Positions 905 through 33,993 of a stretch of DNA of 37,319 nucleotides are shown here, one piece after another (position 1 is the first letter of the stretch; each line of letters begins with the position of its first letter). The DNA is from a virus (lineage: Duplodnaviria > Heunggongvirae > Uroviricota > Caudoviricetes). The notes beneath the pieces were generated by a model, which had not been told where the DNA came from, made no database searches, and was given only the letters and a program-made list of their open reading frames with translations. The translations under genes and the position numbers were made by a program. The DNA is taken from IMG/VR virus record IMGVR_UViG_2645727743_000020, positions 1-37,319 of that record; one strand, written 5' to 3'.

Positions 905-1462
905 TCAGATTAGGGCTATCTGCTGATTATTTAGCTTCTCCAATCTTTCAGACAGTTTTATCTTATCTTCAACTTTTTCCAGCGATGATGCTGACATAAA
1001 GCTAATCAGCTTATCAATATCTTTAGGTTCTTTGATAAGAACAAACTCCCTTGTCTTATTAATGAAAACAGCTGAGTTTTTCTTTCTTGATAGCAACTCA
1101 ATGACGTTGCTCAGTGTTCCCGGACTTTTTGTATCCCAAACCATAAGGCCACAGTCTGCTGTTTCTGCCATCTTTATATCTTTGGCTGTGTAGAAATCTC
1201 GAGTTCCGGGTCGGAAGTTTGATTTAACGAGTTTCACGGGCCATGCACCAAAATTGTTTCGTGGCTTGGCATCACTAGTGAACACAGTGGTTGCGCTATA
1301 ACCCAATTGTTTTAGTTCCAGCTGTACGGAAGAGTCAACGCCAGAGGCGTCACCGACGATAACATTAAAGTTCTTGTCAACAATCTTCTTTAAGCGCTCA
1401 ACGATAAGCGGGTCGAGCTTTTTAATGGTTATCGAGCCAGCAACGAAAACTGTCGTTGTCAT
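905..1462 (-). CDS. SLOG/DprA-like Rossmann-fold protein, second gene of the PRTase pair (ShosA-like candidate)
   Basis: ATG 1462 with GGAG SD, 2 nt after the PRTase stop; motifs VFVAGS...VIVGDASGVD and SPGTLSNVIELL resemble the glycine-rich loops of DprA/LOG (SLOG superfamily); family assignment is by motif only. Confidence 0.55.
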   Translation of the reverse strand: MTTTVFVAGSITIKKLDPLIVERLKKIVDKNFNVIVGDASGVDSSVQLELKQLGYSATTVFTSDAKPRNNFGAWPVKLVKSNFRPGTRDFYTAKDIKMAETADCGLMVWDTKSPGTLSNVIELLSRKKNSAVFINKTREFVLIKEPKDIDKLISFMSASSLEKVEDKIKLSERLEKLNNQQIALI

Positions 1463-1464
1463 GG

Positions 1465-2052
1465 TTATCTCCAGGTTAGTGCTGCTACATAAATTTTATT
1501 GATTTTATTATAACCGCGTAACGCTGTAACTGCAGCTTCCATGGATGCTCCTGTATGGAAGAGATCATCAACGATGAGGGCATTAAAAGGGCCATCCCCG
1601 ACAATTTGGTTTTGATAAGAAAAAGCGTCAGCAACAGCAGCTTCTTTCTCTTCTTTAGTGTTCAGATTTTTCAAAGACACGCCACCAGGTGCTTTGATTA
1701 ATAACTCATTGAAGCTAAACATGTTATTTCCCATTTTTGATGCCAGAGCGTCAGTAATTGCTGTCACGGGTTGAATTTTTCGAACATTTGAAGCTGCCAT
1801 TGGGATGATTAATTGTATGTTTTGAAAAAGAGGCACAGCATTAACTAATAGGCACTGGGCAAGCGCATCAACTTGGTCCATGTCATTTTGATATTTTAAC
1901 TGGTATACGGCTTCTCCAACCTCCGTGCGATCGTTTTGAAACATAGGCTTGCCATACTCGTTATCACCTAAATAAGTACTCTTAATCAAATGCTTATCCA
2001 TCGCGTAACCTAAATCCCAGTTACCCGTAATTGGCTTGATGTTTACTTTCAC
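1465..2052 (-). CDS. Type I phosphoribosyltransferase-domain protein (ShosT-like candidate)
   Basis: GTG start 2052 with AAGGAAA SD; PRPP-binding signature ALIVDDLFHTGASMEA near the C-terminus; inserted between tail gene D and ogr. Confidence 0.7.
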   Translation of the reverse strand: MKVNIKPITGNWDLGYAMDKHLIKSTYLGDNEYGKPMFQNDRTEVGEAVYQLKYQNDMDQVDALAQCLLVNAVPLFQNIQLIIPMAASNVRKIQPVTAITDALASKMGNNMFSFNELLIKAPGGVSLKNLNTKEEKEAAVADAFSYQNQIVGDGPFNALIVDDLFHTGASMEAAVTALRGYNKINKIYVAALTWR

Positions 2053-8633: not shown

Positions 8634-9128
8634 ATGGCCATGATGATGATCTACGGCATGTTTGTTTTTGAGCTGCGCACGCTGCCGCATCAGCAGTTAC
8701 AGCAAAACAAAAGCTGGCGGCATGTGAAAAATGAACGCGTTAACCGTTCAGCAAGCTGGCAGTATATCGGTGCAGGTGATGATCGCATCGTTCTTTCTGG
8801 TGTGCTTTATCCTGAAATTACAGGTGGCGAAGTGTCGCTGTCGCTGCTGACCACGCAGGCGTATACAGGACGACCCTGGCCTTTGATTGATGGCGTCGGG
8901 CAGATTTACGGCATGTATGTCCTGACTGGAACGAATACGACCCGTTCCGAGTTTGATCGCTACGGTAAGGCGAAAAAGATAGAATTTTCACTGACCCTTG
9001 AACGCTGTGATGAGGATTTGCGGGAGCGCCTGCAATCCTCATCGTTCAGTGATATGCTGTCCGGCTTCAAAGATAAGGTCACATCATCCCTTAACAGCGC
9101 GGCCAGCTCCGTTAAAGGGCTGTTTTGA
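8634..9128 (+). CDS. U: Tail protein U
   Basis: 164 aa (P2 U about 159 aa), YGMFVFELRTLPHQ N-terminus, immediately after T. Confidence 0.85.
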   Translation: MAMMMIYGMFVFELRTLPHQQLQQNKSWRHVKNERVNRSASWQYIGAGDDRIVLSGVLYPEITGGEVSLSLLTTQAYTGRPWPLIDGVGQIYGMYVLTGTNTTRSEFDRYGKAKKIEFSLTLERCDEDLRERLQSSSFSDMLSGFKDKVTSSLNSAASSVKGLF

Positions 9129-9154
9129 TTAACGCAAAACCGCTAATGGTCAGA

Positions 9155-9754
9155 TTAGTGGTTTTCATTTTCCTGAGTCTGCCTGGTTGTTTCTTCAGCC
9201 TGTATATCGCCTACAGGGTGATAACGATAAATCGTCGATATGCCGATGTCGTAAATGATCGCCAGTTGTTTTCTGTCATGACCGTTTTTGATCAGCCTTG
9301 CTATTTGCTCATGCTGTTCTTTTGTCAGCTTCGGGCGACGTCCGCCTGTGCGCCCCCGTGCGCGCGCTGCCGCCAGTCCGGCCAGTGTACGTTCAACAAT
9401 TAATTCACGTTCCATTTCAGCCAGGGCACCCATCACGTGGAAGAAAAAACGCCCCATTGGAGAAGATGTATCTATGCTGTCGGTCAGACTGCGAAAATTA
9501 ATCCCTCGCTCCCGTAGTTCTCCGACGAGAGAAATCAGATGTTTCATGCTTCGCCCAAGGCGATCCAGTTTCCAGACAACCAGCGTGTCACCTTTTTGAA
9601 GCCGCTTTAAAGCGCGTTTTAATCCCGGTCGGTCTGTCTTTGTCCCGCTTAATTTATCTTCAAATATTTGTTCACATCCTGCACAAACAAGAGCGTTTCG
9701 TTGCAGGTCTGTATTCTGGTCATTTGTTGATACCCTTACATAACCAATCAGCAC
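9155..9754 (-). CDS. Serine DNA invertase, Gin/Pin/Cin/Hin family
   Basis: VLIGYVRVSTNDQNTDLQRNAL N-terminus with catalytic Ser and a C-terminal HTH; start placed at GTG 9754, which reproduces the Gin/Hin N-terminus (track ORF begins at TTG 9772). Confidence 0.9.
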   Translation of the reverse strand: MLIGYVRVSTNDQNTDLQRNALVCAGCEQIFEDKLSGTKTDRPGLKRALKRLQKGDTLVVWKLDRLGRSMKHLISLVGELRERGINFRSLTDSIDTSSPMGRFFFHVMGALAEMERELIVERTLAGLAAARARGRTGGRRPKLTKEQHEQIARLIKNGHDRKQLAIIYDIGISTIYRYHPVGDIQAEETTRQTQENENH

Positions 9755-9808
9755 ACTGAATCTCCCGTCCAAAAGCGCAAATCATGCCATGCAGGCCGGA
9801 AACGGCCA

Positions 9809-9834
9809 TTATCTAAAACCTCGGTTTACAGGAA
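9809..9834. repeat. gix-like invertase crossover site, left
   Basis: TTATCTAAAACCTCGGTTTACAGGAA, a 26-bp two-half-site sequence with central GA; inverted repeat of 12881..12906 (23/26 identical). Confidence 0.8.
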
Positions 9835-10842
9835 ACGGTAAACAGGGCCAGGAACGCCGTGCAAAAGAATGGCGATACCTTGTCCGGTGGGCTTACTTTT
9901 GAAAACGACTCAATCCTTGCCTGGATTAGAAATACTGACTGGGCAAAGATTGGTTTTAAAAATAATGCCGACAGCGACACTGATTCATACATGTGGTTTG
10001 AAACAGGCGACAACGGCAATGAATATTTCAAATGGAGAAGCCGCCAGAGCACCACAACAAAAGACCTGATGACTCTTAAATGGGATGCTTTGTCTGTCCT
10101 TGTTAAAGTCCTTTTCAGCAGTGAAGTAAAAATATCGACAGTCAATGCACTGAGGATATTTAATTCATCTTTTGGTGCTATTTTTCGTCGTTCTGAAGAA
10201 TGCCTGCATATCATCCCTACACGAGAGAATGAGGGAGAAAATGGTGATATAGGGCCACTACGCCCCTTTACGCTTAATCTCAGAACTGGTCGGATAAGCA
10301 TGGGGCATGGTCTTGATGTTACAGGGGATATATTTGCAAACCGTTTTGCAATTAACAGTAGTACCGGCATGTGGATTCATATGCGTGACCAGAATGTTAT
10401 TTTGGGACGCAATGCGGTATCCACCGATGGTGCACAGGCATTACTTCGTCAGGACCATGCTGATCGCAAATTTATGATTGGTGGACTGGGAAATAAGCAA
10501 TTTGGCATCTACATGATTAATAACTCAAGGACAGCCAATGGCACCGATGGTCAGGCGTACATGGATAATAACGGGAACTGGCTTTGCGGCTCGCAAGTTA
10601 TTCCCGGCAACTATGGCAATTTTGATTCCAGATATGTGAAAGATGTTCGACTTGGTTCACAGCAATATTATGGAGTGAACAACTGGCAAACATGGAATTT
10701 CCAGTGCCCGTCAGGTCATGTATTGTCTGGTATTAATGTTCAGGATACAGGGTCCAACTCTGCCGATAATATAGCGGGCGTTTATTACAGACCCGTTCAA
10801 AAGTATATAAATGGCACCTGGTATAATGTAGCGAGCGTTTAA
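9835..10842 (+). CDS. Alternative tail-fibre C-terminal cassette (Sv'), promoterless in this orientation
   Basis: Open frame begins inside the left gix site and encodes [19 protein letters not shown]..., i.e. the same junction residues as H at the right site (LGLQETVN); ends ...[12 protein letters not shown] like the H C-terminus; track ORF 9859..10842. Confidence 0.75.
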
Positions 10843-10843
10843 T

Positions 10844-11371
10844 ATGATGCACTTAAAGAACATAAAAGCGGGTAACGCTAAAACACTGGAACAGTATGAG
10901 TTAACAAAGAAACACGGAGTTATCTGGCTTTACTCTGAGGACGGAAAAAACTGGTATGAGGAAGTGAAAAACTTTCAGCCAGACACAATAAAGATTGTTT
11001 ACGATGCAAATAATATTATTGTCGCCATCACTAAAGATGCCTCCACGCTTAACCCTGAAGGTTTTAGCGTCGTTGAGGTTCCCGATATAACAGCCAACCG
11101 CCGCGCTGATGATTCAGGAAAGTGGATGTTTAAGGATGGAGCTGTAGTTAAACGGATTTATACGGCAGACGAACAGCAACAACAAGCCGAATCACAAAAG
11201 GCCGCATTGCTTTCCGAAGCTGAATCAGTCATTCAGCCGCTGGAACGCGCTGTCAGGCTGAATATGGCAACAGACGAGGAACGCACACGACTGGAAGCAT
11301 GGGAACGCTACAGTGTTCTGGTCAGCCGTGTGGATACGGCAAATCCTGAATGGCCACAAAAGCCTGAGTAA
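10844..11371 (+). CDS. Tail fibre assembly protein, partner of the silent Sv' cassette
   Basis: 175 aa; N-terminal 110 aa closely similar to the 11400..11933 product (MMHLKNI.AGN.KT.EQY.LTK...[23 protein letters not shown]), divergent C-terminus. Confidence 0.85.
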
Positions 11372-11376
11372 AAATT

Positions 11377-11396
11377 AAGGCCCGATATCGGGCCTT
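11377..11396. terminator. Perfect 20-bp palindrome between the convergent tfa genes (putative bidirectional terminator)
   Basis: AAGGCCCGATATCGGGCCTT lies between the stops at 11369..11371 and 11400..11402, flanked by A/T runs. Confidence 0.5.
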
Positions 11397-11399
11397 CTC

Positions 11400-11933
11400 T
11401 CATTCTGGTTGTTCGGGAAACGTTACTGGCAGGCTGGAAGTGTCTGTAGATTCGACTTTCTGCGCAAAGAGCATCCACTCTGTTAATTTTTGTTTATTCT
11501 CGTCGGAAATGATGCCCAGCCGTAGCTGTGAGTCCCATAGCTGGGTTTTATCCCTGACGAGCTGTAGCAGGTTTTGCTTTTCATTTTCCGCCTGCTGCCT
11601 CTGCTCTTCCTCGGTATAAGTTCGCTTTACCACTACGCCATCTTTGAACATCCATTTACCCGAAATGTCAGCACGGCGATTTGCTGTAATATCAGGTAAT
11701 TCAACGACGCTTGCGCCTTCCGGATTAATTGCTGAAACATCCTTTTCAATACAAATAATAACGCCGTTATGGTCATAGACCATTTTCAAAGTGTCTGGCT
11801 GGAAATTCTTTTGTTCCTCATACCAGTTTTTTCCATCCTCTGAATAAAGCCATTTGATGTTAAATTGTTTCGTTAGCTGGTATTGCTCTTTTGTTTTAGG
11901 GTTGCCAGCAGTAATGTTTTTTAAGTGCATCAT
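11400..11933 (-). CDS. G: Tail fibre assembly protein G (expressed orientation)
   Basis: 177 aa directly downstream of H on the same strand. Confidence 0.85.
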   Translation of the reverse strand: MMHLKNITAGNPKTKEQYQLTKQFNIKWLYSEDGKNWYEEQKNFQPDTLKMVYDHNGVIICIEKDVSAINPEGASVVELPDITANRRADISGKWMFKDGVVVKRTYTEEEQRQQAENEKQNLLQLVRDKTQLWDSQLRLGIISDENKQKLTEWMLFAQKVESTDTSSLPVTFPEQPE

Positions 11934-11935
11934 CG

Positions 11936-14038
11936 TTAAATACTCCCCGCGTTATACCACGTCCCATTAATGCAATACTGAATTGGCCTTGCCTGAGTTG
12001 TATCAATTAATTCATCACGGTTTCCGTTAACTGAACCCGTAACGACATAACCTGACCTGTCAGACCAGCCGGGACCATTCCATGTCTGAACAGATGACAG
12101 ACCGCCAAGGCGAATACCTGTAATAAACCTTGAGTTACATTCTGCCTGCGTGTATGCACCAACATCTCCCGCAGAGGGTTTGCGGGTCGTGGTGTAAAAC
12201 TCTGACCAGTCAGCCTCAAATCCATAACCATCACGCGCTGAACGATAAAAAATACCGCCGTTCCTGTAATTCACGCGGAACTGTACAGCAGGGCAGCTCC
12301 CCGTATTCATATTGAAGTGGAGGATTAATGTCGATGCGCCACCAATGTTTGCGTTATAGACCCCGCTATTCCAGTTCCAGCCAACAGCTTTATCATTTCC
12401 GACAGTGCTTCCTGTTTGCCCTAAAGCAAATGCAGGTTGTTGATTTTTCGTGTTGTAGTCTCGTCGCCAGCCAGGAGCGTAAGCATCACCATGATTAATA
12501 TAAGTGAATTGAGCGTTAGTAATTCCGCCACCGCTGGACGTGCTCGGCGTGGTAACGCGTATGGTCATTGCGCCGCGAGTGCCAATAACTTCCACCACAG
12601 CACCTGCAAGACAAATATTTCCGCAACCTGTATCTGTAATGACCTTATTATTTGCATAAGCCCATGAGCCTTTGCACATCCAGTAAGGATGGTTAAATGC
12701 TCCCTGACTCTCCAGCCACGAAATAAATTGCGCGGTTGTCCAGACCTGACTATCGCCACCAATATTCAGCCATGAGCTATATGCGCGGCAGGCACCAATA
12801 TTTTTGGTGAAGGTATCTTTCCCCGGAATATCTGCGCCGTTCTGGTTTTTCTGTAATGCGCCAGAAGCCTGATTTACCGTTTCCTGTAAACCGAGGTATT
12901 CGATAACAGCGGCAACGGTCGATTTCGCAAGAATATCCCGCCCGACTTCTGTCAGGGTTGCCAGACTGGCAACATCATTCCCCGTAAAATACGGAAACCT
13001 GTCTGCCGCAGTAGCAAGCCCGGCCAGCGCCGTCAGGGTGGCATCTTTCGGTTGCTTACCCGCAAGCGCGTTAGTCATGGTGGTCGCAAAATTCGGGTCG
13101 TTGCCCAGCGCCGCCGCCAGCTCGTTCAGCGTGTTCAGTGCGTCAGGTGAAGAGTCTACAAGTGCGGCAATCGCGGCCATAACGAAAGCCGTGCTTGCGA
13201 TTTGGGTATTATTCGTTCCCTGTTGTGCAGTTGGTGTTGTTGGCGTTCCGGTCAGTGCCGGGCTGTTTAATGGGGCTTTCTTGTTCGTTTCATCCATTAC
13301 CGCCTTAACCGCTTTTGGTGTCGCTGCCAGCGTTTCAGACGTGCTGTTGGTTGCACTGCTGAGCTGGACTATCCCTTTTCGTGCCGTCGTGGCGTCCTGA
13401 GCGGTATATTTTCCGTTAGCCAGGTCATACGCGGCCTTAACCGCTTTCGGCGTTGCGGCCAGCGTTTCAGAATCGCTGTTAGTGGCGCTACTGAGTTGAA
13501 CAAAGCCTTTTGCGGTCAGCGAGGCATCCGGGTGACGTCGTGACTGTTCATGCTCTTTCAGTTTGTCATCCACGTAATCCACTGTGGCCATCACCATGGT
13601 GTTATCCACGGTAAGCGCCACGGTGGCAGTGCTGGATACGGTTAGAATGGTGCGAAATGTTTGTGCACGTCCGGACCCCTCGGCAACGGTTGGCTTGTAA
13701 CTTTCGGCAGTATTGCCCACCGCGATTAAATCGCCGTGCTCATCAAATACACCAATTTCCCGGATCCAGAATCCGCCCGTTTCAGGAGGAATAACCAGCT
13801 CCGCAATAATGCGGTTCTGATGTGTTGCGTCCAGGATGACGCGATTAACAGTGTGTCGCCACACCTCATGCACCAGACGGGTCTGCTTACTGTCTGGTGT
13901 GGGCAACGTGCCGCCACCGTCGCCCACGGCCATATGAGTCAGGCGGACAGGCTTACCATCTGGCGCGGCTGCCTGAGCTAATTTTTTTGCACCCGTATCG
14001 GTGATAACGGTTTTAAATTTTCGTGTTGTGGTACTCAT
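11936..14038 (-). CDS. H: Tail fibre protein H (constant N-terminus plus currently expressed variable C-terminus)
   Basis: 700 aa (P2 H about 669 aa) with Ala/Thr-rich repeats; right gix site falls at about residues 378-386. Confidence 0.9.
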   Translation of the reverse strand: MSTTTRKFKTVITDTGAKKLAQAAAPDGKPVRLTHMAVGDGGGTLPTPDSKQTRLVHEVWRHTVNRVILDATHQNRIIAELVIPPETGGFWIREIGVFDEHGDLIAVGNTAESYKPTVAEGSGRAQTFRTILTVSSTATVALTVDNTMVMATVDYVDDKLKEHEQSRRHPDASLTAKGFVQLSSATNSDSETLAATPKAVKAAYDLANGKYTAQDATTARKGIVQLSSATNSTSETLAATPKAVKAVMDETNKKAPLNSPALTGTPTTPTAQQGTNNTQIASTAFVMAAIAALVDSSPDALNTLNELAAALGNDPNFATTMTNALAGKQPKDATLTALAGLATAADRFPYFTGNDVASLATLTEVGRDILAKSTVAAVIEYLGLQETVNQASGALQKNQNGADIPGKDTFTKNIGACRAYSSWLNIGGDSQVWTTAQFISWLESQGAFNHPYWMCKGSWAYANNKVITDTGCGNICLAGAVVEVIGTRGAMTIRVTTPSTSSGGGITNAQFTYINHGDAYAPGWRRDYNTKNQQPAFALGQTGSTVGNDKAVGWNWNSGVYNANIGGASTLILHFNMNTGSCPAVQFRVNYRNGGIFYRSARDGYGFEADWSEFYTTTRKPSAGDVGAYTQAECNSRFITGIRLGGLSSVQTWNGPGWSDRSGYVVTGSVNGNRDELIDTTQARPIQYCINGTWYNAGSI
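12881..12906. repeat. gix-like invertase crossover site, right (inside H)
   Basis: TTCCTGTAAACCGAGGTATTCGATAA, inverted relative to 9809..9834; encodes AVIEYLGLQE in the H frame. Confidence 0.8.
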
Positions 14039-14040
14039 GC

Positions 14041-14571
14041 TTAATCGTCCGGATAAATGGTAATAACTTCACCGTCATAAGTTGCCGCCGCTGCGAAAAT
14101 ATCCCCCGGAATTTCCTGAATGATATTCAGCCCTGTCATGTGGCGGCTGACCGGACGGGCATCAGCAATCAACCGCTCCATTTCCAGATACATTTCCTCC
14201 GTCACGCCACTGTCCAGTGTGCCGACTTCAACGGTAAATGTTCCCGGTTCTCCGCCGAACTCCCACCACTCAGACACGCGAATGAGGTATCCCAGCGGCT
14301 CAATGGCCCTGCGCAGTGCGCTGATGGTCCCTTTGTGTCGGTGTATCAGCCATGCATCACGAATAACCTGTCGCTTTGTCTCTTCCGGCCAGTTGCGATC
14401 CCAGCGGTCAACGGAAAATGCCCAGGCGAGATAGGGCAGCAGATGCACCGGGCAGGTATCCGGCGACCACAGTGTGTTGAGGTCTACCGGAATGTCTGTA
14501 ATGCGTGTTCCGACGGCTTCGGCACAACGCATGAAATTGCTGGCTGATGGTGGTAACAACGAATTACTCAT
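14041..14571 (-). CDS. I: Baseplate/tail protein I
   Basis: Start placed at ATG 14571 (MSNSLLPP), giving 176 aa as in P2 gpI; track ORF extends to 14604. Confidence 0.8.
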   Translation of the reverse strand: MSNSLLPPSASNFMRCAEAVGTRITDIPVDLNTLWSPDTCPVHLLPYLAWAFSVDRWDRNWPEETKRQVIRDAWLIHRHKGTISALRRAIEPLGYLIRVSEWWEFGGEPGTFTVEVGTLDSGVTEEMYLEMERLIADARPVSRHMTGLNIIQEIPGDIFAAAATYDGEVITIYPDD

Positions 14572-25752: not shown

Positions 25753-27957
25753 TTACGTGTCGAGAGAAATTTGTGTGCGCAGTTGAATAGGATTCAGAAT
25801 TGTATATCGCTGGCGAATAACATTATATAAATCAAAGTCTTTTACCCTTACGCTTATTACCATCGCATATTGCATATCAGGGGCTGAAACTCCCTTAACA
25901 TGGCGCGAAGAATCTCGGGCATGATACCGTATATCAAAAACTGGATCGCTTAATAATGTATCAGCACTGAACTTTTTGCTTCTGTGCAAACAAGTTTCCC
26001 ACTTATGACCTTCACTCCTACACTCCCTTTCAGTCTTATACTGGCTTTTTTGACCAAAGAAATCATCTGTATCGGTATCGTCAAGGCCGAATCTTGGGCG
26101 GAAAGTTACCTGCATACCGGCCCTTGTATAGTTTACTGAATGTTCAGGATCTACTGGGGTTTGAATGCATAAAGTAGCGGTAAGCTCAAATGCTTCGTCA
26201 AAGGGAACATCAGGGAATGGGATCGGTGCCCTTAAATATTTATTTTTTGCTAATGAACCATAGTAAATTACTGTAGCAGTATCATTTGGACAATCGATTA
26301 AAACGTTAGGATCCTCACTAAACCGTCCCCAACCGATATGTTCACGCGAATATTTTCTTGATGTTTCAGCATGATGAACAAGCAACGCTTTCAATGCAAT
26401 GGTGTTCAATGGAGTTCCTGATAGAGCCGCAACTCCAGCGGCCGTTCTCAATGCTAATGGAGAGGCATAACTGGTTCCTTGAACTCCAACTATAGAACCA
26501 AGCAGAGGGTTGTAAGTGTAAAAAGGCTCGTCGTCGCTTCCACCAAAAATAACACCATCAGGTTTAACGAATCCGGGGCTTCTGCCTGGCCCAATACAGC
26601 TATATGGTGCCCGCCCCCATTTTTCACCGCTACGATCAGCAGCACCAATCGCTAGCGCGTTTACCATATCGGAAGGAGGTTGTATTCTCGCTGCATCACC
26701 GTCCTCATTGCCATCATTCCCAACAGCAACAGTAAGTAATATCCCATGCTTAGCACAGATTTGGTCTAAAACAGCAGTCCATACATGAACCTCATCATCA
26801 CCAATTGGAAGATGAGGACCAATACTTAGATTAGCGAACTTATAGTCACCACTATCAAGAACGGACTGTATTTTCTTAAGGACATCAAATAAATCCCAAT
26901 TGCCATTGTCACCTGATGTCGGTGAAAGAACTCTATAATGATCTACATTCATAAACGGTCTTTTAAAAGAAGGTGCATTTTCCTCGACACGTCCGAATAA
27001 GAAAGTGGATGTCACTTCATTACCGTGCTGCAATAATAATCCGCTTGTTTCTTTGGTGTCTGGATACACGTATTCCGTAACCCAATTACTCAAGTCAGCT
27101 GTCCCCAAGCCACCATCAAAAATGGCAATACGTTCGGATTCAAGAACAGCTTTAGAATTAGGGAGCTCTGGTGTAACTATATTAGATAACTTTCTGACAA
27201 TGTTCGGCTGAGTACACCTGAGAGACGGCATCGGCCGCACAACGCGGATTAATGAAAAATCGAGTGTTTTTTTCATATCTTCAGGTCGCGCGTGTGCAAC
27301 GATGAAAGTCAGCCCACCAACTTGGATTCTACTTTTGTAATCAACAGAGACATCATATTGTGCCGCATAGCTAATATAGGCTTTAACGATATCATCGTCT
27401 TCAACCCCAGCATGAAGAACCACTTCAAATTTTATCAAATCACTTTTCGCATGCTCAAAATTGCGTGCTCTCTCTTTTCCTTCAAAAAAGCTAACACTTT
27501 CAATTTCGATCAAATCCTTTTGTACGCCCTTCGGAGCTGTAGGGGAATTTAAAATTTCCTTAAATCTTATAACGGCATCATCATCACCGCTAACAAACAG
27601 TTGCGCCGTTACTAAGTCCTTATTCTGATCGCACTGACGTGCCGCTTTCCGTGGGCGAATGATTACCTGACGGCTACCGACATCCCGTAAACCTGTCGCT
27701 CTAAGCAATCCTTCCGGAAAGTAGCTTTTACCCAAAAACGCTGGGTGTAAAGTTAAATTGAATACACTCTCCCCCCTTGGCTTAGCCGCATCATCCAAAC
27801 TGCGAAAGCGTGAGAGTAAAGTATCAATCTCTGGGTTTAAATGCTCCCTTACTTCTTCAAGAGTATAGGGATAGCGCTTACCATCCCTTCCTTTAGGCAA
27901 AGGTTCCTTTTTTGTCAGAACATGACCGTTACCTAAAAGTAAGTTCCTTTCCATCAT
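25753..27957 (-). CDS. S8-family subtilisin-like serine protease with a roughly 270-aa N-terminal domain of unknown function (IetS-like candidate)
   Basis: Catalytic triad motifs in order: IAIFDGG (Asp), HGNEVTS (His), GTSYASPLA (Ser, the GTS-x-A-x-P signature); 734 aa; start overlaps the ATPase stop by 4 nt. Confidence 0.85.
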   Translation of the reverse strand: MMERNLLLGNGHVLTKKEPLPKGRDGKRYPYTLEEVREHLNPEIDTLLSRFRSLDDAAKPRGESVFNLTLHPAFLGKSYFPEGLLRATGLRDVGSRQVIIRPRKAARQCDQNKDLVTAQLFVSGDDDAVIRFKEILNSPTAPKGVQKDLIEIESVSFFEGKERARNFEHAKSDLIKFEVVLHAGVEDDDIVKAYISYAAQYDVSVDYKSRIQVGGLTFIVAHARPEDMKKTLDFSLIRVVRPMPSLRCTQPNIVRKLSNIVTPELPNSKAVLESERIAIFDGGLGTADLSNWVTEYVYPDTKETSGLLLQHGNEVTSTFLFGRVEENAPSFKRPFMNVDHYRVLSPTSGDNGNWDLFDVLKKIQSVLDSGDYKFANLSIGPHLPIGDDEVHVWTAVLDQICAKHGILLTVAVGNDGNEDGDAARIQPPSDMVNALAIGAADRSGEKWGRAPYSCIGPGRSPGFVKPDGVIFGGSDDEPFYTYNPLLGSIVGVQGTSYASPLALRTAAGVAALSGTPLNTIALKALLVHHAETSRKYSREHIGWGRFSEDPNVLIDCPNDTATVIYYGSLAKNKYLRAPIPFPDVPFDEAFELTATLCIQTPVDPEHSVNYTRAGMQVTFRPRFGLDDTDTDDFFGQKSQYKTERECRSEGHKWETCLHRSKKFSADTLLSDPVFDIRYHARDSSRHVKGVSAPDMQYAMVISVRVKDFDLYNVIRQRYTILNPIQLRTQISLDT

Positions 27958-29036
27958 TTAATCCCCCACTTTTGTAATTTATTCGCGATTGTTGGATGTG
28001 AAACACCAACTAATTCAGCTATCTTCCTATTTGAAAAACCGTCAAAATGATATTTAATTATATTGAGATCATTATCGCTAAACTCATCCAATGAAACCCT
28101 CTCCGTAATTACGGCTTCTATTAATGAGCTTTCAAATGGAATATTTCTAAGTACCTCATTCTTTTTGGAGAAATTCAAAATACGGTTAATGATGGCAAAG
28201 GACATGCCATCTAATAATGGTGCAAGTTTTTTAGATAGTTCAGGTTCAATATTATGATTGACTAAATATCTATCTATCAGTTCTACTGATGGCATATTAA
28301 ATTTAAGGATGTGCTCAAATCGACGCCAAACAGCCGGATCTAAGATATCAGGGTGATTAGTCGCAGCAACAAGAAGCGAGGTCGCTGGCCACTCATCTAT
28401 GGTCTGTAGGAGTACAGTAACTAAACGTTTTAATTCTCCAACGTCCCTGTCATCATCACGTCTTTTTGCAACAGCATCAAATTCATCAAGCAAAAGGACA
28501 CATGGTTTCTCTTTGGCATAATCCATAACGGATTTAATATTATTACCTGTTTTTCCCAAAAGAGAACTCATTACAGATGAGAGATCCAATGTTAAAAGAG
28601 GTAAATTTAACTTTGCAGCAAGCCAATGTGCGGACATTGTTTTGCCTACGCCTGGCGGGCCAGAAAGTAAAACCGTCTTCACAGGTTCAAGACCAGCTTT
28701 GAACAAAGAAACCGCATTCTCTCTTTCGTTAACAATTGACTCCAGCTTCTTTGAGATATCCGTATTCCATACAGGTTCTTCAACAATTGCGTTGACAGAT
28801 GTTTCCTGCAAAAGGTTTCGTCTGGAGTCTCCATCCACAGGCATAGGAGCCTTACTAGATGCCCCACGTAATACTGTTCCCTCAGCAACTAACGAAGCCA
28901 GCTTAGAAGCTAAAGCCTCATCATTTTTACGGATGTTGTTAATCATCTTTCTGCATAGGAGTGTAAATGCATTTGCGTTGCCTTTGATGCCTTGCTCGAT
29001 GAGTTTGAAAAGTTCATCCTCCCTCACGTTTACCAT
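27954..29036 (-). CDS. AAA+ ATPase with C-terminal LuxR/sigma-70 region-4-like HTH (IetA-like candidate)
   Basis: Walker A GPPGVGKT, Walker B VLLLDEFD, sensor/arginine-finger ATNHPDILDPAVWRRF; C-terminal NRKIAELVGVSHPTIANKLQKWGI; ATG 29036 with GGGGG SD. Confidence 0.85.
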   Translation of the reverse strand: MVNVREDELFKLIEQGIKGNANAFTLLCRKMINNIRKNDEALASKLASLVAEGTVLRGASSKAPMPVDGDSRRNLLQETSVNAIVEEPVWNTDISKKLESIVNERENAVSLFKAGLEPVKTVLLSGPPGVGKTMSAHWLAAKLNLPLLTLDLSSVMSSLLGKTGNNIKSVMDYAKEKPCVLLLDEFDAVAKRRDDDRDVGELKRLVTVLLQTIDEWPATSLLVAATNHPDILDPAVWRRFEHILKFNMPSVELIDRYLVNHNIEPELSKKLAPLLDGMSFAIINRILNFSKKNEVLRNIPFESSLIEAVITERVSLDEFSDNDLNIIKYHFDGFSNRKIAELVGVSHPTIANKLQKWGIK

Positions 29037-29730: not shown

Positions 29731-30690
29731 TTACTCCTTGTCCATTGCGTACAGCCCATTAACCAGAGCAAACTGTGGCACCCCGTCCGCGATGAAAGTC
29801 GCATTAACTCCGCAGGCTTCGCGGATAGCGGGTGCCACAATCTCCGCCCCTCCACCGACAACCATCACCCGCCCGTAACCCGAAAAAACCGCCAGCGCGC
29901 GGATCACGCGTTGTTTCAGTGTTTCTTCCTTTTCACGAATAACCGCCATCAGGCTGGCGTAATGCGCGTCATTGTGGATGTGCTGGCGCAGCCAGGCTTC
30001 ATCATGGCGATGTTCGATAATGGTATTGGCGATGTGGTGACTGGTGCGCATACCGTTAGTGGCCATCACCGACAGTACGGCATCGGCCATCAGAGAAACG
30101 CCTACGTGTGGATCGCAAAACACCTGGCTGATACCTGCCAGTTGCCCCTGAACCTTTGCCACATCCAGCGTGGTTCCGCCCAAATCCACAATCAGCAGGG
30201 ATTCAAACGGACTCATGTCAGCCAGTGCCTTAAAGCCAGCCGGAATGGATTCAGGCATAACCCGCACGTTACGGATAGTGAATGCCTCACCGTTCTGGTA
30301 CTCCACCGGGCGCATAACGTTTGCTTTTTTGCGGTTGATGTTGGCCATGTCCGGCTGGGCGTTAGTGTCGAAATATTCGCTCAGTGGCAGGGTGACAACC
30401 ACATCCACTTCCTGTGGCGTGATGCCTGATTTGACCAGCGCGTGATGAATGGCAATGACATTCACATCGCTGTACTGGTATTGCGTGTCGGTCGTCTGGA
30501 CAAAGCGATCGCTGACCGGATCAAAACCATAGCGCACGCCATCAAGCATGTAGTTCGCAGGCTGCGAGCCACCGAACGGTGCAGACCATTCCGACTTGAA
30601 GCTGTTCGGGCTGATGGCGTTGCGGCGTTCGCCGTTTTCAGTCCATGCCAGCTTGATGTTGGTGGAGCCGTCGTCGATACAAATTTTCAT
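29731..30690 (-). CDS. parM: ParM/StbA-family actin-like segregation ATPase
   Basis: 319 aa; IDDGSTNIKL, ISPNSF, YSDVNV, HHAL, KANVMRPVE, VMPESIPAG, LLIVDLGGTTLD, VVGGGAE, LVNGLY all align with R1 ParM (recalled from memory). Confidence 0.9.
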   Translation of the reverse strand: MKICIDDGSTNIKLAWTENGERRNAISPNSFKSEWSAPFGGSQPANYMLDGVRYGFDPVSDRFVQTTDTQYQYSDVNVIAIHHALVKSGITPQEVDVVVTLPLSEYFDTNAQPDMANINRKKANVMRPVEYQNGEAFTIRNVRVMPESIPAGFKALADMSPFESLLIVDLGGTTLDVAKVQGQLAGISQVFCDPHVGVSLMADAVLSVMATNGMRTSHHIANTIIEHRHDEAWLRQHIHNDAHYASLMAVIREKEETLKQRVIRALAVFSGYGRVMVVGGGAEIVAPAIREACGVNATFIADGVPQFALVNGLYAMDKE

Positions 30691-30725: not shown

Positions 30726-30816
30726 CGGGATTTTTAAATCCCGCTTTCGCCTGTTTTGTGCGCGCTTCATATATCGCGGCGCGTTTTTTGCTCATTTGCG
30801 GGATTTGTGAATCCCG
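30726..30816. repeat. Two related palindromes upstream of parM (parC-like centromere/operator candidates)
   Basis: CGGGATTTTTAAATCCCG (30726..30743) and CGGGATTTGTGAATCCCG (30799..30816), each followed by a similar T-rich stretch, within 130 bp of the parM start and overlapping the A 3' end. Confidence 0.45.
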
Positions 30817-33607
30817 TTTCTGTCTGTTTTTTGTTGCCACTGGTCAGGCCACCCCGCAGCAGGTCTGCTTTGCGGCGGGCGCGTTCAGTGGTTTCACTGA
30901 TTCTCTGTGCGTGCTCTGCGTCACGAATGGCGCGCAGCATGTCAGAAAGCACGGTAACGGGTGTTTTCATGGTGTTCTGGTCCTGCTGAAGTGTGGATGC
31001 CAGGCGTGCGGCGGCTTCGGGGTCTGATGCCCCGAGCTGTGCCAGATAGCTGGCGACCGGGTTATGGCGGATCTCCGTGCTGCTTACGCCGTGATTACGG
31101 CTCAGGCGCTGCCAGAGCTGCGTGATTCGGCTGTCCGGGCGGGTATCCGGTTTGCGTACAATTTCAAATCCCTGCGGTGCAATGATGCTGCCGTCAACGT
31201 ACAGGCTGCCGCCCCGTAACAGGTGCTGCATCTGCTGTTCACCGATATGCAGGCCGAGAGATTCGGCAGACTCCCGCCATTCTTTAGCGAGTAATTCGTG
31301 GTTATCAGGCAAAGGCTGTGGCTGTTTGCGGCTCTGTGTCCAGTTCTGCATTTCATCACTGCTGTTTTTGGCCTGTTTGTCACGCAGCGAACGCATCAGT
31401 GCCCGGCGTTCGTGCCGTTTCAGTGAGCGCATCCATTCATTCACTTCAATGCCGTCAGGGAGCTGCGGCCACGGTGCTGGCCGTTCTTCCGGCTGTTCTG
31501 TCCCGTTGTTGTCCGTTTCCTGTACACGGGGACAGTTATTGCCACGAGTCCAAGGGGCGGCAGGGCCGCCCTGAAGGTCAAAACCATTTTCGTGGGCGTT
31601 GTCTTCCGGTTCTGGTTTACGTCTTACCAGCTTCCAGTTATCCGGATGCGTGCACACACGGGAGGATTCCCCGATGAGTGGTGACCAGATTCCGTAAATC
31701 TGTACGCTCTGTTCGCCGTAATCGTTCAGCTCATCTGCGAGGTCGTAGGCGGTGCGAATCAGGTAGTCCTTGCGTGGAACAAGCACGCCACCCTGTTTTT
31801 CAATGTAGGTGGCAAAACATCCGGCATCAGCGGCAGCGAGTACCGCATCCATTGCGTCATCCTTCAGCCGTTGCGGGCCTTCCGGGTTGCGTGCCATCTG
31901 GCTGGCAAGGCGGCGCAGTTCACGCCACACCTGACGGGAGGGGATACCAAAGAACTGGAACTGGCGGACCCGGTGAAGGCGCGCCCAGCCGATGGCGCGT
32001 TCCACGCTCTCGGCCATTGATTTTCCGGTTTCGTGGTCAACGCGTGGCTTGCCCGTTTTCGGGTCGATGCCATCCACGGCGCGGCTGTCCAGGTTTTTTC
32101 CGATGTAGGTCGCGATATAGCTGGTTGGTGTGCCTTTTGAGCCGTCGACATACTCCACCTTAAAGCGCGGAGTAATATCATTGCCCAGCTCGTGGCGGTC
32201 TTCCTGAATGGCAATATCGCGGGTGATGGCCACGATGCTGTCGATTTCTTCCGGATGAGCAAAGACCATCATATGCCAGTGCACGGTGCCGTCATGGTGA
32301 GGCTCCACCGTGCGGATGCCATACCAGCGCAGACCGTCGCGGTTCAGTTTTTTGCGGACTGCCGCAAAAAACGTGTTAACCAGGTAATCGCTGGAGTCGC
32401 GCATGGTGGCCCCGTTCCATTTGGGATTCGGATGACCGTTCTCTGTTGTGGCGTGGTATTTTGACGGGCAGGTGACAGTCAGAAACACCGCTCTGTCGCC
32501 ACGGGCTTCGGCCAGAAGTTCCAGCCCCCTCATGGTGGCCATCATTTCTGCCTTACGGTGAACCGGGTTACTTACTCCCGCGTAATACACTGTCTCGAGA
32601 TCAATCGTGAACCCGTCTTCGTTTTCCAGCATGAAACTTTTCAGGAAATCGCGTGTTTTCTCGCGCTGCGCGCGAAACTCGCTTAATGCGTCCTGACTCA
32701 GATAGGGCGATGTTTTTCTGGAAACCAGACAGGCGGCGCGGAGTTGTTCTTCCCGCCACTCGCAACGTAACAGCCACAGTTTGCGTTTCCACCATTCCGC
32801 ACAGGTCAGGCGAAGGATTGCGCCCGGCAGCAGCTCCGTGTCCGGTTCGTTCCTCCGGTCTTTGTCTGTTGTCAGTGCGTCATAATGTGGAGGCATGGCG
32901 TGCAGGTGTAACGCCATGCGGGCCAGCATCTGATACGCCTTCAGCGTTACATCCATGGTCAGCTCGCCATCAGTCGCGCCAAAGCTATCGCAGAGTTTTT
33001 CGAAGGTGCTGCTGAACATCGCCGCCGTCATGGTGGCCAGCGTCTGTATCTGGTGTTTGTTGAGCTGCGGCAGGTAAAGCAAATCGTCCAGGCGTTCGCG
33101 TCCGGTAAGGGAGCGATAACCCGGTGTCAGCCAGCGGTGATCGGTGCGTTCCAGGCGTTCGAATATTTTGCGCAGGTTTCCGCGCGCGTAGCGTTCAGCC
33201 TGCCAGCTCTTTTTGCCTTTCTGACGATCGGATTCCTGTTTTTTGCGCAGGAAAGAGAGGTGGCGGCTCAGAGGTTCACGCAGATAAACGGGAAGCACTT
33301 TCAGTGTGGCAAAAGCACGGGCCACCGGGTCTTGTTCTGTTGCCTGACGCTTGCTGATGATGCTTTGTGCCAGCTTTTCACGCTGTCCGGCTTCCTCAAG
33401 GGATGCCATGAGTTTTTTACCCACGGTGGATTGTGCGAAAAAGGCTTCCTCCTTCGCTTCCTGTTCTTCCAGGGCCTTTTTGTCTGCCTCAAGGTAGTAA
33501 CGGATGGCGCGTTGCAGGTCGGTTTCAGTTTCCTGCCTGTGCTCCGTAAATCTGGCCGGATCAATGGCTGGTCGTGGTTCATTCCAGCTCCATGCAAACT
33601 CACTCAT
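30767..33607 (-). CDS. A: Replication initiation protein A (rolling-circle nickase family)
   Basis: 946 aa from ATG 33607 (ATGA overlap with the upstream ORF); longer than P2 gpA (about 761 aa). Confidence 0.85.
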   Translation of the reverse strand: MSEFAWSWNEPRPAIDPARFTEHRQETETDLQRAIRYYLEADKKALEEQEAKEEAFFAQSTVGKKLMASLEEAGQREKLAQSIISKRQATEQDPVARAFATLKVLPVYLREPLSRHLSFLRKKQESDRQKGKKSWQAERYARGNLRKIFERLERTDHRWLTPGYRSLTGRERLDDLLYLPQLNKHQIQTLATMTAAMFSSTFEKLCDSFGATDGELTMDVTLKAYQMLARMALHLHAMPPHYDALTTDKDRRNEPDTELLPGAILRLTCAEWWKRKLWLLRCEWREEQLRAACLVSRKTSPYLSQDALSEFRAQREKTRDFLKSFMLENEDGFTIDLETVYYAGVSNPVHRKAEMMATMRGLELLAEARGDRAVFLTVTCPSKYHATTENGHPNPKWNGATMRDSSDYLVNTFFAAVRKKLNRDGLRWYGIRTVEPHHDGTVHWHMMVFAHPEEIDSIVAITRDIAIQEDRHELGNDITPRFKVEYVDGSKGTPTSYIATYIGKNLDSRAVDGIDPKTGKPRVDHETGKSMAESVERAIGWARLHRVRQFQFFGIPSRQVWRELRRLASQMARNPEGPQRLKDDAMDAVLAAADAGCFATYIEKQGGVLVPRKDYLIRTAYDLADELNDYGEQSVQIYGIWSPLIGESSRVCTHPDNWKLVRRKPEPEDNAHENGFDLQGGPAAPWTRGNNCPRVQETDNNGTEQPEERPAPWPQLPDGIEVNEWMRSLKRHERRALMRSLRDKQAKNSSDEMQNWTQSRKQPQPLPDNHELLAKEWRESAESLGLHIGEQQMQHLLRGGSLYVDGSIIAPQGFEIVRKPDTRPDSRITQLWQRLSRNHGVSSTEIRHNPVASYLAQLGASDPEAAARLASTLQQDQNTMKTPVTVLSDMLRAIRDAEHAQRISETTERARRKADLLRGGLTSGNKKQTETGFTNPANEQKTRRDI

Positions 33608-33993
33608 GGCTGGTATCCCGTCACGCGCTGCCACTCCTGCAAGAAGATGGTGGAAAGGCGGTTAAATTCAGCGGTGTATTCACTCAGCGAGACACACCCG
33701 CCAGCAGTGCGATGCGCCAGCATTGCCGCAAATACGGAGGCCGGGGAGTCGTAATACGCCAGCAGTGATTCGCCGTGCGGTGTCAGGCAGTGCAACGCCA
33801 GTCCGTGTGGTGTGAAGTCCACGCGGTAGCAGTCGTCTACTGTGAAATAAAGGGTATCCACATTCTCCGGTTTTGTGGTGCGTGCTCTGTTGTCACGACC
33901 ACGAATGTAGAGATCAAATAATCCCCGAAGAATGGGAGCCAGACGGGTGTCCTGTGTGCGCACCCATCTTGTGAAGTCATGAGCGTCAATCAT
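33604..33993 (-). CDS. Hypothetical early protein (129 aa) translationally coupled to A
   Basis: ATG 33993; stop overlaps A start; no recognisable motif. Confidence 0.55.
   Translation of the reverse strand: MIDAHDFTRWVRTQDTRLAPILRGLFDLYIRGRDNRARTTKPENVDTLYFTVDDCYRVDFTPHGLALHCLTPHGESLLAYYDSPASVFAAMLAHRTAGGCVSLSEYTAEFNRLSTIFLQEWQRVTGYQP

Follow-up and report, generated by a model that had tools for sequence, protein, structure and literature searches.

The locus described here is, very probably (about 93%), a working tail-fibre host-range switch of the Mu G / P1 C type in a P88-like (Xuanwuvirus) P2-family prophage. It lies in a stretch of 37,319 nucleotides of phage DNA, hereafter the window, and its features are collected in Table 1. 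All parts of such a switch were present, and the open reading frames of the locus were all intact.

On its gene content and gene order, the element carrying the switch is a P88-like prophage of the P2 family (Xuanwuvirus, Peduoviridae). The window was collinear with Escherichia phage 520873, which is classified as Xuanwuvirus, and Pfam searches detected the P2-family markers Phage_P2_GpU, Tail_P2_I, Baseplate_J, Phage_GPD, Phage_GPA, Ogr_Delta and Phage_sheath, together with a tyrosine integrase gene (Phage_integrase). Head, tail, lysis, replication and integrase genes were all found, and the prophage looks complete as judged from these predicted genes. Scans for tRNA genes and Rfam families over the entire 37-kb window gave no matches.

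Table 1. Features of the switch locus (positions are those of the window)
Feature	Position	Strand	Remarks
Terminator-like hairpin	9136..9165		Lies where the gpU and invertase genes converge
DNA invertase, 199 aa, GTG start	9155..9754	-	Gin/Din-family small serine recombinase
Recombinational enhancer equivalent (Mu sis / P1 cin enhancer)	9665..9736		nt 19-90 of the invertase gene
Left gix	9809..9834	-	Outer half 9809-9820, core 9821-9822, inner half 9823-9834; 1 mismatch to Mu gix
Invertible segment, core to core	9821..12894		3074 bp (both 2-bp cores counted); homologue of the Mu G and P1/P7 C segments
Silent tail-fibre 3' cassette, S-variable type	9823..10842	+	Pfam Gp34_trimer; without upstream reading frame
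Silent fibre assembly chaperone, U type	10844..11371	+	Pfam Caudo_TAP 8.7e-38; 91% identical to Mu U
GC-rich hairpin	11377..11396		Separates the two cassettes, which converge; resembles a terminator on the minus strand (AAGGCCCGATATCGGGCCTT, then a T-run)
Expressed fibre assembly chaperone, U' type	11400..11933	-	Pfam Caudo_TAP 4.4e-36; 96.6% identical to Mu U'
Variable 3' part of H as sequenced, S' type, Mu G(-) form	11936..12893	-
Right gix	12881..12906	+	In frame within H (…IEYLGLQE…); differs from Mu gix at 2 positions
Constant 5' part of P2-type H, outside the segment	12894..14038	-	Pfam Phage_tail_fib 1.2e-53, Phage_fiber_2 1.2e-41

Recombination sites and fibre cassettes

A repeat search found a 34-nt inverted repeat at 9809-9842 and 12873-12906, the arms of which are 94% complementary and are separated by 3030 nt. 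The left site within this repeat reads TTCCTGTAAACCGAGGTTTTAGATAA as its reverse complement, and the right site reads TTCCTGTAAACCGAGGTATTCGATAA. The Mu gix sequence, TTCCTGTAAACCGAGGTTTTGGATAA, is present exactly at both G-segment boundaries of NC_000929, just as it was given in the preliminary description of this DNA, which had also proposed inverted 26-bp sites with a central GA close to Mu gix. Both sites of the window indeed consist of two 12-bp half-sites flanking an identical, non-palindromic 2-bp core, GA. The one and two mismatches to Mu gix are confined to the outer half-sites (AATACC in the right site in place of AAAACC), and neither site departs from Mu gix in its inner half or at the central GA. 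No other gix-like match was found in the 37-kb window, either with up to 3 mismatches or, in a separate scan, with up to 5, and the expectation from 100 shuffled sequences was 0.00. A shufflon or a Min-like multi-inversion system, of the kind present in one P2-like prophage of EPEC, was considered and rejected, since a third site was absent when the full site or its 16-nt inner part was searched with up to 3 mismatches and in the separate scan with up to 5.

The DNA of the segment is about 92% identical to Mu G, 92.5% to the P7 C segment and 93% to Shigella phage SfMu. It holds two opposed 3' cassettes, and behind each lies a separate chaperone gene (Caudo_TAP). The constant part of H, which consists of a collar domain and fibre repeats (about 381 codons), continues in the sequenced orientation into a variable part of the Mu S' type (residues 376-700 are 97.5% identical to the variable part of Mu S'), giving a protein of 700 aa. 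For the silent cassette, the identity is 94% with the fibre variant of SfMu, 83% with P88, 78.5% with P7 Sv', 69.5% with Mu Sv and 59.6% with the cassette of phage 520873. When the segment was inverted in silico at the site centres, H remained an uninterrupted frame, now of 721 aa with an S-type tip; the two forms have residues 1-389 in common.

The open 721-aa fusion and the paired chaperone genes bear out the earlier proposal that inversion would swap the C-terminus of H together with its chaperone, and the reading frame confirms that the right site lies in frame inside H. The fibre at 11936..14038 is, as proposed, the H of the sequenced state; its variable cassette belongs to the Mu G(-) type (S'/U') and not to G(+). 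Of the junction residues, which the silent cassette was also proposed to encode, it shares only the inner ones, GLQETVN; in that frame the outer half of the left gix reads I-stop-N. Because of this TAA, there would be no read-through into the silent cassette. A simple promoter scan of the segment found no promoter able to express the silent cassette.

Invertase, enhancer and proposed mechanism

The invertase gene sits just outside the segment, and its transcription is directed away from it. The start codon is most likely the GTG at 9754 (MLIGYVRVS…, preceded by GGGAGA) rather than the TTG at 9772 of the mechanical ORF list. A simple scan detected no sigma-70-like promoter upstream of the gene. 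The product carries the Pfam domains Resolvase (1.3e-50) and HTH_7 (8.8e-13) and can be aligned with Gin, Cin and PinE. Its best match among solved structures was Gin (8.7e-102; PDB 4m6f/3uj3, about 1e-101, with a full-length alignment), the mechanism of which, including the role of Ser9, has been described (PMC3575834). The overall identity to Mu Gin is 82%, made up of 122/125 identical residues in aa 1-125 and 23/47 (49%) in the HTH region, aa 139-185. The nucleophilic Ser9 (in the conserved YVRVSTNDQ), the LDRLGR motif, the wild-type Met114 and the HTH are all kept. Helix 3 of the HTH, IGISTIYRYHP, resembles that of Hin, IGVSTLYRYFP. By these alignments, the enzyme is a mosaic of a Gin catalytic domain and a Hin-like DNA-binding helix.

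The P1 record, in which the cix sites, the crossover and the cin enhancer are annotated, gives the enhancer the coordinates nt 19-90 within cin, which is also where the enhancer equivalent of the window lies in its gene. This stretch of the window gene is identical to Mu gin at 72/72 positions and to cin and pinE at 55/72. A scan of it with the Fis consensus was ambiguous, giving two G-N13-C motifs with a centre spacing of 49 bp; the spacing of the Fis sites in hin is 48 bp. The assignment of the enhancer equivalent is accordingly based on the 72/72 identity to Mu gin and not on these motifs. By analogy with the related systems, Fis would bind here.

The switch may then operate as follows, with the dependence on Fis and the enhancer and the cleavage at the GA core taken by analogy from Gin, Hin and Cin. 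Dimers of the invertase would bind the two 26-bp gix sites and, together with host Fis bound to the enhancer in the 5' end of the invertase gene, would form an invertasome. Ser9 would cut both sites at the central 2-bp core, and subunit rotation and religation would leave the 3.07-kb segment flipped. The promoter, the ribosome-binding site and the first ~381 codons of H would remain fixed outside the segment; each orientation would thus provide a different C-terminal receptor-binding region, followed by the chaperone gene that belongs to it. As sequenced, the locus is expected to yield the S'/U'-type fibre of Mu G(-); once flipped, it would yield a fibre of the S/U type, for which SfMu offers the closest match. 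The receptor specificities of the two fibres are likewise predicted from the analogous systems, and a population of lysogens would release particles with two host ranges.

Orientation of the segment in E. coli genomes

The segment occurs in both orientations within this locus family in E. coli genomes. Among the complete genomes, 72 were collinear with the sequenced orientation and 62 with the orientation flipped in silico (about 54:46), where collinear means that at least 80% of the 5.2 kb was found in one place; identities ranged up to 97-98%. The preliminary description would have been contradicted had the alternative orientation never been seen; it was seen both in these counts and in two pairs of sibling isolates, whose members differ over about 11 kb by exactly this inversion. 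Strain 2020N21-110 and its derivative 2020N21-110-15 differed at 2240 positions before, and at none of 11,348 bp after, one sequence was flipped between the site centres. The strains GF8 and GF161 showed after the flip a single mismatch in 11,198 bp, which lay outside the locus. In this pair both gix sites are exactly those of the window, and the invertase is closely similar, though not identical, to that of the window; it is this pair that points to activity on the exact sites found here. Flipping had occurred, too, in a pair with a more divergent right site (3 mismatches). In the sibling pairs the crossover was confined to 23-25 identical bases containing the GA core.

There is another possible interpretation of the inversions in these relatives, namely RecA-dependent homologous recombination at short inverted repeats, with the adjoining recombinase being incidental. 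The placement of the crossover, which is resolved only to the 23-25-bp run of identity, is compatible with either site-specific or homologous exchange. An identity of about 25 bp is, however, a very poor substrate for RecA, and the break points observed do not fall in the longer stretches of inverted homology within the segment, which the two chaperone genes share over 80 nt and 65 nt. The repeats are, moreover, the specific recognition sites of the family of the adjoining enzyme, and high-frequency flipping of such loci in culture has been documented (PMC4272514). We regard RecA-dependent exchange as scarcely credible.

The other question is whether the switch still works in this particular prophage. 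The two substitutions in the right site, both in its outer half, and the DNA-binding domain with only 49% identity to Gin count, at the level of sequence, against the full-strength reading. Together with the single substitution in the left site, they would fit a frozen relic, in which the G-type architecture persists but the invertase or the right site is dead and the prophage can no longer leave the S'/U' state. Against this, all open reading frames are intact, the catalytic domain is nearly identical to that of Gin and retains Ser9, and the enhancer equivalent matches Mu gin at every position. GF8 and GF161, with identical sites, have flipped, as has the pair with the 3-mismatch right site, and the orientations are nearly balanced among the genomes. 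It is thus very unlikely that the locus is such a relic, and a functional switch remains the preferred explanation.

Related systems and significance

The Mu G segment with Gin shows the same order as the window: the constant fibre part (Sc in Mu, H here), a segment of about 3 kb, and the invertase. The constant part is about 170 codons long in Mu and 381 in the P2-type H of the window, and the window invertase has a longer tail than Gin in addition to the divergent HTH. The mom/com genes found in Mu are lacking downstream. Mu is, furthermore, a transposable phage, whereas the switch described here resides in an integrative phage of the P2 family. The C segment of P1 is 4.2 kb long and has long inverted repeats, the orientation and placement of cin are unlike those in the window, and the two invertase genes are identical at 268/375 nt over the first 375 nt.

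The P88-like phages (520873, 503458, P88 and Citrobacter phage ΦSM, Shae_phiSM) match 80% of the 5.2-kb region at 93% identity and have the gene order of the window, i.e. tape measure, gpU, invertase, two cassettes, H, I, J and W. The invertase of ΦSM is 97.5% identical to that of the window. Fibre cassettes are exchanged among these phages, the silent cassette being the one that is only 59.6% identical to its counterpart in 520873. The paper on the host range of P88 (PMC5285337) makes no mention of inversion or of an invertase. In E. coli E2348/69, Goldberg et al. (2014, PMC4272514) described prophages that are likewise P2-like and exchange fibre C-termini by means of a Hin-family invertase. 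Their invertible fibre loci flip constantly in culture, and sequencing and PCR showed both orientations to coexist in clonal cultures; one of these prophages has three repeats and four states, in contrast to the two sites of the window (PMC4272514). The invertase family is shared with the P segment and PinE of e14, with Salmonella Hin and with Fels-2 Fin, and PinE aligns over its full length. Hin, however, inverts a promoter, and the present system inverts the 3' end of a coding sequence. Unlike the prophage in the window, e14 is defective, and its invertible segment, about 1.8 kb, is shorter.

Invertases of the Din family cross-complement, and in E. coli genomes with any match the number of G-segment-like places has a median of 2 and a maximum of 11, so that several substrates often coexist. 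The flipping might affect the lysogen or other elements, either by action of the invertase in trans on other G/P-type segments or by one orientation altering the sensitivity of the cell to other phages, which we consider unlikely; if it did, action in trans would link several prophages in their host-range states or promote exchanges among them. Serine invertases of cryptic prophages are reported to block T2 adsorption after inversion (PMC12529663), and a change in phage sensitivity has recently been reported for PinQ and PinR of cryptic prophages. That such a role for the host, be it in trans or through a protein of one orientation that changes the surface or the phage sensitivity of the lysogen, is the main present role of a working switch is nonetheless highly improbable: the prophage appears complete, the cassettes are ordinary fibre tips with their chaperones, and with no promoter found in the segment by the simple scan there would be no expression independent of H.

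Tail-fibre switches of the Mu G / P1 C type are well known, and the locus opens no new question. It does bear on annotation, since RefSeq labels the silent 3' cassette as a separate gene for a 'phage tail protein' or 'hypothetical protein', and on the comparison of assemblies of the same strain, which may differ by the 3-kb flip without real divergence. For the prediction of host range, the sequenced state would be read as a fibre of the Mu G(-) type and not of the K-12 type. The locus would represent a clean and complete case of classical bet-hedging, in which one prophage gives rise to particles with two host ranges.

Recombination sites and anatomy of the segment

In the region 9000-14200, a single outstanding inverted repeat was found, formed by 9809-9842 and 12873-12906 (34 nt, 94% complementary, 3030 nt between the arms). 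The two inverted gix-like sites proposed in the preliminary description differ from Mu gix by one base (left) and two bases (right). All of these differences fall in the outer half-sites, and both sites have the same inner half-sites and the same central GA. The gix sequence given in the preliminary description is present unchanged at both G-segment boundaries in the Mu reference genome. Elsewhere in the 37,319-base window, no further gix match was found with up to three mismatches allowed (up to five in a separate scan), and none was found in 100 shuffles. The observation of the two sites is real and far beyond chance.

Features of the inversion locus and of the surrounding element
Feature	Position	Strand	Remarks
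Hok/Gef-family toxin ORF	1-141	minus	very start of the window; 46 aa; Pfam 4.1e-07
Ogr/Delta zinc-finger late activator	332-592	minus	adjoins the Hok/Gef ORF
Invertase gene	9155-9754	minus	immediately outside the left site, transcribed away from it; 199 aa
Left gix site	9809-9834		26 bp
Silent fibre cassette	9823-10842 (mechanical ORF from 9859)	opposite to H, facing it	frame open from the left site onwards
Second chaperone gene	10844-11371	opposite to H	silent side
GC-rich hairpin	11377-11396		between the two cassettes
Caudo_TAP chaperone gene	11400-11933	minus	after H
H (P2-type tail fibre)	11936-14038	minus	700 aa; N-terminal P2-type collar domain and fibre repeats
Right gix site	12881-12906		26 bp
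Direct repeat in constant part of H	13302-13397 and 13434-13529		96 nt, 75% identical, 132 nt apart
IetS-like S8 subtilase	25753-27957	minus	PADLOC IetS 6.6e-41; Pfam Peptidase_S8
IetA-like AAA+ ATPase	27954-29036	minus	PADLOC IetA 3.6e-89
ParM actin-like segregation protein	29731-30690	minus
gpA-type replication protein	30767-33634	minus	unusually long (955 aa)

The right site lies in frame within H, as had been claimed. The left site, read in the frame of the silent cassette, encodes inner residues common to the H junction, in line with the earlier reading, but its outer half contains a stop codon, so that the silent fibre copy is kept untranslated. Inversion had been expected to swap the C-terminal region of H together with the chaperone; flipping 9821-12894 in silico indeed gave an uninterrupted H of 721 aa, the first 389 residues of which were unchanged. 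The 96-nt direct repeat in H corresponds to the two Phage_fiber_2 repeats. The layout, in which the constant part of H is followed by the segment and the invertase gene, is the order of Sc, G and gin in Mu.

The DNA identity of the segment is about 92% with the G segment of Mu, 92.5% with the C segment of P7 and 93% with SfMu. For the expressed variable part and its chaperone, identity reaches 97.5% with Mu S' and 96.6% with Mu U', which belong to the G(-) form; for the silent fibre part and chaperone, it is 69.5% with Mu S and 91% with Mu U. The closest relatives of the silent tip are SfMu (94%) and then P88 (83%). The observation and interpretation of the preliminary description were upheld overall; the minor points needing correction are where the invertase starts, which Mu orientation is expressed, and that the left site contains a stop codon.

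Invertase, putative enhancer and predicted mechanism

The invertase probably starts at the GTG at 9754 (MLIGYVRVS…), which gives the length of 199 aa. The protein is a mosaic of a Gin-like catalytic part and a diverged HTH domain. Residues 1-125 are identical to Gin at 122 positions, including Ser9 and the wild-type Met114, and about the first 375 nt of the gene match Mu gin at 348 of 375 positions; past 125 aa the divergence is sharp. The HTH domain shares 23 of 47 residues with Gin, its third helix is more Hin-like than Gin-like, and the acidic tail is 14 aa longer. Within residues 1-125, the Gin chain in 4m6f differs from the window only at position 114 (Val in 4m6f); M114V is a Fis-independent mutation. 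Among the invertases of the phage collection, the nearest is the one from Citrobacter phage ΦSM, at 97.5% identity.

The Cin enhancer is annotated at nt 19-90 of cin in the P1 record, and the equivalent stretch of the window's gene (9665-9736) is identical to Mu gin at all 72 positions. Judged by sequence, with the enhancer represented by its equivalent stretch, the locus has each of the four components of a Din-type inversion system in intact form.

By analogy with the established knowledge of Gin (PMC3575834), Hin and Cin, invertase dimers would bind the two gix sites, and Fis at the enhancer would promote assembly of the invertasome on supercoiled DNA. Cleavage by Ser9 at the 2-bp core, rotation of subunits by 180 degrees and religation would then invert the segment. 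Because H is transcribed and translated from starts that lie outside the segment, each orientation would supply it with a different receptor-binding tip and the chaperone that goes with that tip. The S'/U' fibre of Mu adsorbs to the LPS cores of E. coli C, Citrobacter, Shigella sonnei, Enterobacter and Erwinia, and the S/U-type fibre to K-12-like cores. The silent tip resembles SfMu more closely than Mu, which makes its receptor uncertain.

The host prophage and its other genes

On the basis of Pfam matches to gpU, gpI, gpJ, gpD, gpA, Ogr, sheath and integrase, the host element is a P2-family prophage of the P88 type. Escherichia phage 520873 (Xuanwuvirus, Peduoviridae) is collinear with the window. 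ParM, which phage 520873 shares and accompanies with a partition protein, adjoins the long gpA-type gene in this integrative P2-family phage.

A putative two-gene IetAS-type anti-phage/anti-plasmid defence pair (25753-29036, minus strand) adjoins the portal gene, in the P2 cargo hotspot. The interval between ogr and gpD contains two adjacent ORFs (185 and 195 aa; 905-2052, minus strand); neither matched a Pfam family at 1e-3. The second has a weak PADLOC match to the PsyrT C-terminus (1e-7), and a motif in it, LIVDDLFHTGAS, faintly resembles a phosphoribosyltransferase (Pfam Pribosyltran, E 0.017). Together the two ORFs could form a small module for cargo or defence. No Sok-type RNA matching the Hok/Gef ORF was found by Rfam at gathering score.

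Orientation of the segment among E. coli genomes

Whether the alternative orientation is ever seen was the test named in the preliminary description. The evidence was taken from the population of complete E. coli genomes, and a genome was regarded as collinear when at least 80% of the 5.2-kb region lay in one place. Both orientations were found: the region as sequenced was collinear with 72 genomes (up to 97.8% identity), and the region with the segment flipped in silico with 62. Two pairs of related isolates differ by the inversion. In the deposited sequences, 2240 positions over 11,348 bp separate 2020N21-110 from its derivative 2020N21-110-15; a flip between the site centres removes every one of these differences. 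GF8 and GF161, from chicken meat in one study, have both of the window's sites unaltered, and a single position, outside the locus, differs between them. These inversions agree with the reported continuous flipping in culture of invertible fibre loci of E. coli P2-like prophages (PMC4272514).

It is unlikely that the switch is a frozen relic, since none of its parts is damaged and the same two sites have undergone inversion in GF8 and GF161. RecA-mediated inversion is likewise improbable. The exchange in both pairs is confined to 23-25 identical bases including the GA core; site identity extends over only about 25 bp, and longer inverted homologies of 65-80 nt inside the segment were not used as break points.

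It is worth noting that, in the RefSeq annotation of these four isolates, the silent fibre 3' cassette appears as a free-standing CDS ("phage tail protein", "tail fiber protein" or "hypothetical protein"), and that siblings have different H protein accessions for no other reason than the flip.

Of the 5426 complete E. coli genomes, 3187 contained one or more stretches resembling the 5.2-kb region; the median was 2 places per matching genome and the maximum 11, and 296 of the places are on plasmids. A single cell therefore often carries more than one G/C/P-type segment and invertase. A host-level role of the switch, or action in trans on other segments, is possible in view of the several such loci in many genomes, but the present analysis gave no pointer to either. 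Both the inversion system described here and its setting are well known, and more than 100 complete genomes have near-identical copies.
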